A DNA stretch of 64,000 nucleotides from Candidatus Aenigmatarchaeota archaeon. GTDB taxonomy: Archaea; Aenigmatarchaeota; Aenigmatarchaeia; CG10238-14. The position numbers were made by a program, and so were the translations under genes. Below the pieces are notes generated by a model, which saw only the letters and a program-made list of their open reading frames with translations, had not been told where the DNA came from and ran no database searches. Where the stretch lies: contig JAHLMM010000001.1 of NCBI GenBank assembly GCA_018920365.1, positions 274,165 to 338,164 on the forward strand, given 5' to 3'. Of the stretch, positions 61,490-61,613 are shown piece by piece (within the stretch, counting starts at the first letter, position 1; each line of letters starts with the position of its first letter).

Positions 61490-61613
61490 TGCAGGAGGCA
61501 GGATTCGAACCTGCGAACCCACTAAGGGAATAGGTCTTGAGCATCGACATCATCAAATCAGTGCTCAATGACTTGACAGATTCTATCGCCTTTGGCCGCT
61601 TGGCTACTCCTGC
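61490..61613 (-). tRNA. Intron-containing tRNA with long variable arm (class II, Leu-like); anticodon unresolved
   Basis: Acceptor (GCAGGAG/CTCCTGC-A) and T-arm are nearly identical to tRNA-Leu(TAG) at 37272..37357. The D-arm is GCC-AAGCGGCCAAA-GGC and the variable arm is TCCCTTAGTGGGTTC. A roughly 40-nt insert sits in the anticodon region and contains a 7-bp helix (TTGAGCA/TGCTCAA). Confidence 0.7.

Follow-up and report, generated by a model that had tools for sequence, protein, structure and literature searches.

The 64-kb stretch of DNA considered here, called the window throughout, belongs to an archaeon of the Aenigmatarchaeota (DPANN) and has a G+C content of 32%. On its minus strand it carries a gene for a precursor tRNA-Leu(CAA) that, to judge by its sequence, is functional, and whose intron of 40 nucleotides (nt) is the subject of this article. 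The locus is almost certainly a tRNA-Leu(CAA) gene with a bulge-helix-bulge (BHB) intron between positions 30 and 31, as suggested by the following features:

61490..61613, minus strand: pre-tRNA-Leu(CAA) gene, 124 nt, from the Rfam tRNA match and from ARAGORN on the spliced form
61583..61613, minus strand: 5' exon, tRNA nt 1-31, which are Sprinzl positions 1-30, ending in ...GGCGAUAG
61543..61582, minus strand: intron of 40 nt between positions 30 and 31, tRNA nt 32-71; its removal restores a 5-base-pair (bp) anticodon stem and the loop CUCAAGA
61490..61542, minus strand: 3' exon, beginning with G31 and followed by the CUCAAGA loop, the CCUAU stem, the long variable arm, the T arm, the acceptor strand and A73
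61537..61539, minus strand: anticodon CAA, with C34 at window position 61539

The Rfam family RF00005 covers the unspliced gene at 61490-61613 from end to end with 40.9 bits, compared with a gathering score of 29, and leaves 49 nt as an unaligned insertion at the anticodon region. ARAGORN in default mode reported no tRNA at these positions; in intron mode it proposed a tRNA-Asp(GTC) with a 30-nt intron, which we rejected on account of a G.A pair in the stem, the class-II body and the lack of conservation. Sub-threshold Rfam matches over the locus (GlsR22 H/ACA and a plastid 3'UTR) have scores far under their thresholds and were dismissed as noise. Once the 40-nt insert is removed, ARAGORN calls a clean 84-nt tRNA-Leu(caa), and all the parts of a class-II tRNA are then in place: a 7-bp acceptor stem, a D arm, a 5-bp anticodon stem, a 7-nt loop with U33 and a purine at position 37, a long variable arm and a T arm. 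The leucine identity elements are likewise present, namely A73 and the variable arm CCCUUAGUGGG common to the intron-less Leu genes of all isoacceptors. An initial annotation of the locus had recognized a second Leu-type gene with an insertion of roughly 40 nt, and both points hold, the insert being exactly 40 nt long and the spliced product a tRNA-Leu(CAA). The strings that it quoted (the ATAGA/CCTAT mismatch, TCAAG, which occurs twice, the 7-bp UUGAGCA/UGCUCAA, CUGA and UGAUGA) were all found on the minus strand. It had also described the acceptor stem, T arm and long variable arm as almost identical to those of the intron-less tRNA-Leu(TAG) gene at 37272-37357; the acceptor stem is the same in both, one base is different in the T arm, and 68 of 86 aligned positions are identical over the spliced gene as a whole.

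The gene neighbouring the tRNA encodes eIF2-alpha, with nearest homologues in metagenome-assembled genomes (MAGs) of Candidatus Aenigmatarchaeota, and 80 genomic loci around eIF2-alpha homologues served as a synteny sample. In L001-L004 and L044 the same tRNA lies directly upstream of eIF2-alpha and has an intron of 31-40 nt at the same site; L005-L007 have a Leu(CAA) gene with an intron at 37/38, and L011 and L017 have two-intron forms. Between species the intron loops vary, and the exon sequences show few or no differences. A wider metagenome sample was drawn with a pattern made from the exons only (variable arm plus T arm) and covered at least 120 loci, the matches listed giving 107 distinct Leu genes of all isoacceptors.

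ARAGORN, when run on all deletion variants, was too permissive to discriminate between intron positions, and explicit stem and loop rules were used instead. Over all one- and two-intron solutions, the 30/31 deletion was the sole solution for the window gene. A canonical 37/38 intron gave none, as had been claimed before, and the intron position is indeed a non-canonical one. Deletion of nt 32-71 joins ...GGCG-AUAG to G-CUCAAGA-CCUAU, with a perfect 5-bp stem AUAGG/CCUAU and the loop C32-U33-C34-A35-A36-G37-A38, and the predicted spliced junction reads ...GGCGAUAG / GCUCAAGA.... The anticodon stem-loop, which had been thought impossible to fold canonically, is thus restored by the 40-nt deletion, and TCAAG, thought to be out of register, is the true anticodon loop and falls into register after splicing. 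The 30/31 site is also used in L001-L004, L044 and other relatives. The anticodon arm of the intron-less gene L110, GCGGUAGGCUCAAGACCUAC, is exactly the predicted spliced sequence of L002-L004, and this match validates the junction.

Every candidate pair of splice sites in the precursor was scanned for a BHB motif, in which an outer helix, a 3-nt bulge, a 4-bp helix, a second 3-nt bulge and another outer helix follow each other and cleavage falls after the second bulge base on each strand; the strict form (hBHBh') requires flanking helices of at least 2 bp. The strict motif was present at 7 of the 4011 possible pairs in the window precursor, and only one of these restores the tRNA and is common to all six orthologous genes compared. 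It lies at the 30/31 junction, with a central helix of 4 bp, two 3-nt bulges, an h helix of 3 bp and an h' helix of 2 bp, and is made up as follows:

61585..61588, minus strand: 5' strand of the BHB central helix (C25 G26 A27 U28), pairing with GUCG at 61545-61548
61545..61548, minus strand: 3' strand of the BHB central helix (GUCG), its first two bases being the last bases of the box C'-like element described below
61582..61584, minus strand: 5' three-nt bulge (A29 G30 / A), with cleavage after G30 predicted from the BHB geometry
61542..61544, minus strand: 3' three-nt bulge (A U / G31), with cleavage before G31 predicted from the BHB geometry
61570..61578, minus strand: 9-nt insert UGUCAAGUC, found in the alignments only in the window and L001 introns

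The flanking helices are AUC/GAU and G23-G24/C32-U33. The 5' side of the motif is supplied by the D stem (its 3' strand), by position 26 and by nt 27-28, and the partner strand is the 3' end of the intron. The motif can form only once the D stem and the anticodon stem are open, a usual requirement among non-canonical BHB introns. From this geometry, an endonuclease would be expected to cut after G30 and before G31; no gene for a splicing endonuclease was seen among the 50 open reading frames (ORFs) of the window that were scanned. The initial annotation had found no textbook BHB and had proposed either a non-canonical intron position or a relaxed bulge-helix-loop motif: the position is borne out, and the relaxed motif gives way to a strict BHB at the exact junction that restores the tRNA.

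Comparison across relatives supports the motif. In a register-exact alignment of 16 distinct sequences the central helix is 98.4% paired, and over the whole BHB 92.5% of the cells are paired, compared with 29-57% when the partner strand is slid. The pair between exon nt 27 and the intron base X5 is G-C in 8, A-U in 5, C-G in 1 and G-U in 1 of these sequences. All 4 bp of the central helix are formed in 21 of the 22 introns of the 30/31 group, and the change from A27 to G27 in L002-L004 is matched twice, by a change from U43 to C43 in the mature partner and by a change from U to C in the intron partner. The insert UGUCAAGUC leaves 3 bp of an outer BHB helix that otherwise has 5-9 bp. It also repeats the UCAAG of the anticodon loop, so that it could pair with the guide element described below as a decoy, and it may have arisen by partial duplication.

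Besides the splice motif, the intron contains a conserved module with the consensus 5'-UUGAG(C/U)-N-[N-U-G-A]-(2-8-nt loop or short G+C hairpin)-N-N-U-G-A-N-N-3', the first six bases of which pair with tRNA nt 36 to 31. We are confident, from the sequence comparisons below, that this combination of a kink-turn (K-turn) and an antisense element is very probably real. Its parts in the window are:

61562..61568, minus strand: antisense (guide) element UUGAGCA, pairing with nt 31-36 (GCUCAA) and the last intron base
61558..61561, minus strand: box D'-like CUGA, with an invariant GA, a U in 18 of 19 sequences and a constant spacing to the guide
61547..61555, minus strand: box C'-like UGAUGAUGU, made of a 3-nt GAU bulge, a sheared GA and U G U; 3' strand of the kink-loop (K-loop), with an invariant U-GA and a G that pairs with the C of CUGA

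In the window CUGA is followed by a loop of 3 or 6 nt and then by UGAUG, a distance within the internal D'/C' spacing of 3-9 nt. NUGA and U-GA are the box D' sequence and the box C' core, and with the 3-nt bulge or loop they give, at the level of the sequence, the tandem sheared G-A/A-G signature of a K-turn or K-loop. The CUGA and UGAUGA elements, whose presence had been noted before and left uninterpreted, would thus form with the 7-bp helix a box C'/D'-type K-loop and a guide aimed at C34. That helix, UUGAGCA/UGCUCAA, had been described as the helix of the insert; it is present, yet it is not the splice motif, representing instead the competing duplex between the intron antisense element and the anticodon loop.

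Among the matches listed there are 45 distinct Leu(CAA) genes with introns, and 34 of these have the exact motif that was tested, the complement of nt 32-36 followed by 2 nt and NUGA, where 0.03 would be expected by chance in 1832 intron bases. The L091 intron, with CGGA where the others have NUGA, is one further near-match. Among the same listed matches, none of the 28 intron-containing non-CAA Leu genes and none of the 47 non-CAA Leu genes overall has an analogous motif. Neither was the module found in 34 other long tRNA genes within 1.2 Mb of DPANN DNA. Each of the ten Leu(CAA) genes located through synteny has the module. A second match to the module pattern in the window, at 45727 on the minus strand, was rejected as a chance hit, the expectation for 64 kb being about 2 matches over the two strands; it lies antisense inside the ORF of an IS200-type Y1 transposase (45509-45967, plus strand), which is situated directly downstream of a ribosomal-protein cluster (S13, S4, S11, L15e).

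The geometry of the module is constant. The fifth base upstream of NUGA is a G opposite C34 in all 35 modules, and the spacing never varies; site selection by C/D ribonucleoproteins (RNPs) follows the same N+5 rule, the target lying opposite the fifth guide base upstream of the box (PMC9670817). In 19 distinct modules every pair of the helix between guide and target is formed (100%). Covariation is seen between guide position 2 and nt 31 (A-U 9, G-C 9, G-U 1) and, next to the U.U position, between position 1 of D' and the second base after the 3' GA (C-G 10, A-U 4, U-A 3, G-U 1, unpaired 1). The GA of either strand is invariant, as is the U preceding the 3' GA. The hairpins between NUGA and NNU-GA also covary (GCC/GGC, GGC/GCC, GCA/UGC, GAUU/AAUC and AGCCC/GGGCU). 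In ten hairpin-bearing introns the K-turn site was set without using the covarying pair, and the pair was still formed in 8 of the 10.

The module occurs in introns at both 30/31 and 37/38, with the target located 3' of the guide in the former and 5' of it in the latter, and the same duplex and K-turn geometry is retained despite the opposite strand topology. In the 37/38 group the K-turn lies in the middle of the intron, and the BHB is formed by a separate 3'-terminal element (UGAG, UGGG or UAAG) that pairs with C32-A35. Because the BHB is built by this different element, the antisense element and the K-turn of the 37/38 group are surplus to splicing, and splicing cannot explain the conservation of a K-turn that is placed outside the splice motif.

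Other arrangements of the Leu(CAA) gene were also seen. Two-intron genes, with the K-loop intron at 30/31 and an additional intron of 12-24 nt at 37/38, are among L161, L153, L188, L137, L142, L194, L101, L091, L011 and L017, together with L150, L140, L132 and L182, and some of these relatives have three introns, the extra one being of about 24 nt near position 9 (AACUUAAGUUAGCUUAAGUCCCUA). Such multi-intron genes could be the intermediate state behind the presence of the module at two intron sites. Introns of similar length without the NUGA/K-turn module were found at 30/31 in L193 and at 37/38 in L106, L127, L169, L177 and L118. L193 retains CUUGAGCGC, and its K-loop is replaced by a GCGC...GCGC hairpin and CGAUGAAG; these introns possibly represent degenerate or alternative forms. 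The Leu(TAA)-like genes L130/L183, L191, L157, L081 and L147 have an additional short intron immediately 5' of the anticodon loop; they share the pieces ...GGACUCAGAAG...GCGA(A/C)|ACUUAAG, and several of them were mis-assigned by the intron parser.

The precursor can be folded in two ways. The minimum free energy structure of the window precursor, at -48.0 kcal/mol, contains the helix between guide and anticodon. When the guide duplex and the D stem are enforced the value is -47.1 kcal/mol, and when the BHB is enforced it is -41.2 kcal/mol, so that the guide fold is about 6-7 kcal/mol more stable. The RNAalifold consensus of eight real precursors also returns the helix between guide and anticodon. 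In the 30/31 group the C' strand doubles in the BHB, its GA-U pairing with AUC and its G-Y with U28-N27, and the two folds are mutually exclusive because they share this strand.

One hypothesis is that the precursor indeed adopts these two mutually exclusive folds. In the more stable one, the intron sequence UUGAGC would pair with nt 31-36 of the anticodon loop, and CUGA and UGAUG, directly 3' of it, would form a box C'/D'-type K-loop that is bound by L7Ae, which would in turn recruit Nop5-fibrillarin. C34, opposite the fifth guide base upstream of CUGA, would then be methylated on the ribose to give Cm34. The intron would in this way act as a natural guide of the C/D type with a single K-turn, a "halfmer", on its own tRNA, either in cis or in trans after excision. 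In the alternative fold, the same 3' part of the intron would pair with C25-U28 and with the 5' end of the intron to form the strict BHB, after which the endonuclease would cut after G30 and before G31 and ligation would yield the mature tRNA. Splicing, L7Ae binding and Cm34 are all steps that we infer. The Cm34 interpretation relies on the geometry, the isoacceptor specificity, the available machinery and precedent, and on these grounds we consider it rather probable that the module guides Cm34 of its own tRNA as a halfmer-like C/D guide. The weakest step in this scheme is that the two folds would order methylation before splicing, and one observation in support of such an order is that modifications precede intron removal in Methanopyrus (PMC3695527).

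The machinery that such a guide would require is encoded in part in the window and in part in the vicinity of the module in a relative, L155:

42102..42443, plus strand: gene for L7Ae, the archaeal K-turn-binding protein and presumed trans factor (Pfam PF01248, E = 6.5e-30)
L155, 6969-7631, minus strand: fibrillarin (PF01269, 1e-75)
L155, 8390-9571, minus strand: Nop5 (PF01798, 4e-53)

In L155 the genes for fibrillarin and Nop5 both lie no more than about 3 kb downstream of the module-bearing tRNA-Leu(CAA), with a TrkA-N ORF between them on the opposite strand. Many Aenigmatarchaeota MAGs have annotated close homologues of fibrillarin. The neighbours of the hairpin-type introns L133 and L102 are proteins of Woesearchaeota, including archaeon GW2011_AR15, so that the module is found in two DPANN phyla or more. 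A broader possibility is that DPANN archaea, at least the Aenigmatarchaeota and Woesearchaeota, have kept the Leu(CAA) intron as a cis-acting halfmer guide for C34, with the exclusive folds serving as an RNA switch that orders modification and splicing, and with the module preserved as the intron moved between 30/31 and 37/38. We put this forward as a tentative model, which has slightly less than an even chance of being correct in full.

Several observations weigh against a role as a guide. The guide duplex has just 6-8 bp, compared with about 10 bp in typical archaeal guides, and there is a single K-turn here where natural archaeal guides have two. No second (terminal) C/D pair or full C/D small RNA (sRNA) was found in the intron or the flanking exons, or by pattern in the window, and since the terminal pair is missing the element is called halfmer-like only and is not filed as a canonical C/D sRNA. 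The box C'-like element is without its final A, the K-turn flanking pair (guide position 1 with X5) is formed in only 12 of 19 sequences, and the L102 and L095 introns have A opposite A at the covarying pair. The exact motif is lacking in 11 of the 45 intron-containing Leu(CAA) genes among the matches listed. Overlap of the C' strand with the BHB in the 30/31 group means that splicing alone could account for part of the conservation there. The K-turn alignment was anchored on the motif, and the sites of hairpin-less K-loops were chosen using the covarying pair. Finally, fibrillarin and Nop5 were not found in the 64-kb window.

We also considered the possibility that the intron is an ordinary non-canonical BHB intron, in which the conserved bases serve folding and the presentation of the splice sites, the UUGAG:CUCAA pairing has no guide role, and the likeness to C/D boxes is incidental. 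A strict BHB is after all present, the UGAUG strand of the 30/31 group belongs to the BHB helices, pairing between anticodon and intron is common in pre-tRNAs, and the guide duplex is short. However, the K-turn of the 37/38 group keeps its invariant GA/U-GA, its covarying hairpin and its covarying flanking pair outside the BHB, CUGA is conserved though it is in no BHB helix, and the antisense element is not a BHB strand in either group. The invariant spacing to NUGA and the absence of the module from the introns of other Leu isoacceptors (0 of 28 among the matches listed) also speak against splicing as the only function, and we regard this explanation as unlikely. A related idea, which accepts the K-turn evidence itself, is that L7Ae, brought in by the K-turn, acts solely as an RNA chaperone or timer, locking the fold that masks the anticodon so as to delay or order splicing or to block premature use of the precursor, with no methylation. 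The exclusive folds, with the K-turn/guide fold about 6-7 kcal/mol more stable, agree with this idea, and L7Ae is reported to bind many K-turns in archaea that are not of the C/D type (PMC5539422). The constant N+5 distance from NUGA to the partner of C34 in two topologies would nevertheless be left unexplained, as would the confinement of the module to a single isoacceptor, the one with a C34 already described as a C/D target, and this makes the idea, in our view, more doubtful still.

It is also conceivable that the helix between intron and anticodon is a recognition element for a protein-only base methyltransferase, as in the formation of 5-methylcytidine (m5C) at position 34 by Trm4/NSUN2 on eukaryotic pre-tRNA-Leu(CAA). 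The modification of this same tRNA species and position is intron-dependent in yeast and human (PMC4090602; PMC11408192), and an RsmB/F (NSUN-type) methyltransferase is encoded in the window at 11640-12539 on the minus strand. Yet the RsmB/F family is common in archaea and the gene is not linked to the tRNA locus, Trm4 needs no K-turn, and the N+5 geometry would find no explanation, all of which makes this a very improbable account. The failure of the default tRNA finders, which miss the locus or mis-call it as a tRNA-Asp with a forced intron, could be taken as a sign of a decaying pseudogene with a random insertion. We give hardly any credence to this view, given that the exons are near-identical across species while the intron loops vary, that compensatory changes have occurred in exon and intron helices, and that the spliced cloverleaf is perfect. 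The reading that we favour is the one in which the module guides the methylation of C34.

The window contains a second disrupted tRNA gene, at 62152-62256 on the minus strand, about 540 nt upstream of the Leu(CAA) gene. It was missed by default ARAGORN and by Rfam at the gathering threshold, and a clean tRNA-Gly(GCC) of 75 nt results when two introns of 15 nt each, one at 29/30 and one at 37/38, are removed. The exons are conserved and the introns variable in L001-L003, L113 and L120. The BHB of intron 1 has 3 of 4 bp in the central helix, with h of 2 and h' of 4, and that of intron 2 has 4 of 4 bp, with h of 1 and h' of 3-5. Introns are present in many further tRNAs on the DPANN contigs (Trp, Gly, Glu, Val, Thr, Pro and others), including a tRNA-Trp of 106 nt in L160, in which the intron sequence UUGGA is complementary to its own anticodon loop and stands without NUGA or a K-turn. 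The Leu(CAA) gene and the neighbouring two-intron tRNA-Gly are missed or mis-called by default finders, and the tRNA sets of DPANN MAGs are therefore likely to be under-counted. Elsewhere in the window, an archaeal signal recognition particle RNA (13862-14137, minus strand) is flanked by the RsmB/F m5C methyltransferase gene mentioned above and by a GCD14/Trm61-like gene (14578-15318, plus strand), which like the RsmB/F gene is not linked to the tRNA.

To our knowledge, non-canonical archaeal tRNA introns are generally regarded as functionless in themselves. If the proposed role is correct, the Leu(CAA) intron would be the second archaeal tRNA intron with a function of its own after that of pre-tRNA-Trp, which would offer a selective reason for its retention in very small genomes. 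It would also provide a tractable system for studying the competition of modification and splicing for one RNA strand. Our literature search retrieved no earlier account of a guide in the Leu(CAA) intron or of a natural archaeal halfmer; key papers from 2001 and 2003 were outside the search, and a prior mention is therefore possible.

As a non-canonical BHB intron, the window intron belongs to a well-known kind, which is handled by tRNAscan-SE 2.0 (PMC8450103). Like the introns described in Crenarchaeota, Thaumarchaeota and DPANN, it is located outside 37/38, has an hBHBh' structure and has relatives with multiple introns (PMC8450103; PMC5829648), and the structure of its splice site is no different from theirs. 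A link between disrupted tRNA genes and the endonucleases of DPANN archaea has been described (PMC5829648).

A close functional parallel is the euryarchaeal pre-tRNA-Trp intron (Haloferax volcanii, and sR50 in Pyrococcus), which also combines K-turn boxes with an antisense element to its own anticodon loop (PMC4090602; PMC7994747; PMC11408192). It guides Cm34 and Um39 (PMC4090602; PMC7994747), and it is the only C/D-guide-bearing intron named in reviews from 2014 (PMC4090602) and 2024 (PMC11408192). There, as predicted for the Leu(CAA) intron, C34 is targeted by the N+5 rule, the modification takes place on the precursor or is directed by the excised intron, and guide and splice folds must alternate. 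The pre-tRNA-Trp intron, described in Euryarchaeota, is a full C/D RNA with boxes C, D', C' and D and one guide each for C34 and U39, at the canonical 37/38 site. The Leu(CAA) intron of the DPANN archaea, unlike this, has one K-loop or K-turn and one guide of 6-8 bp, is mostly 30-49 nt long (up to 85) and is inserted at 30/31 or 37/38. C34 of tRNA-Leu(CAA) is also the predicted target of C/D sRNAs that act in trans in Pyrococcus (PMC7994747; PMC7668247), but these are separate genes of full size with two K-turns, and Cm34 of that tRNA was unconfirmed in the survey cited. Eukaryotic pre-tRNA-Leu(CAA) shares the isoacceptor and the wobble base, and there the modification occurs only when the intron is present (PMC4090602; PMC11408192), although m5C34 is a base methylation by a stand-alone enzyme (Trm4/NSUN2) that involves neither a K-turn nor an RNA guide.

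In its architecture, the module resembles the halfmer C/D RNAs engineered by Yang et al. (2020) and the Ye laboratory (2022), in which one K-turn and an open-ended guide 5' of box D direct methylation by the N+5 rule (PMC7229835; PMC9670817). These RNAs were active in vitro with archaeal L7Ae-Nop5-fibrillarin (PMC7229835; PMC9670817), and they differ from the intron in being laboratory constructs with guides of about 10-12 nt. The existence and function of halfmers in cells was posed as an open question in 2020 (PMC7229835). If our interpretation is correct, the Leu(CAA) intron, as a conserved natural halfmer of about 30-40 nt that targets its own tRNA, would answer this question and could serve as a minimal model RNP.

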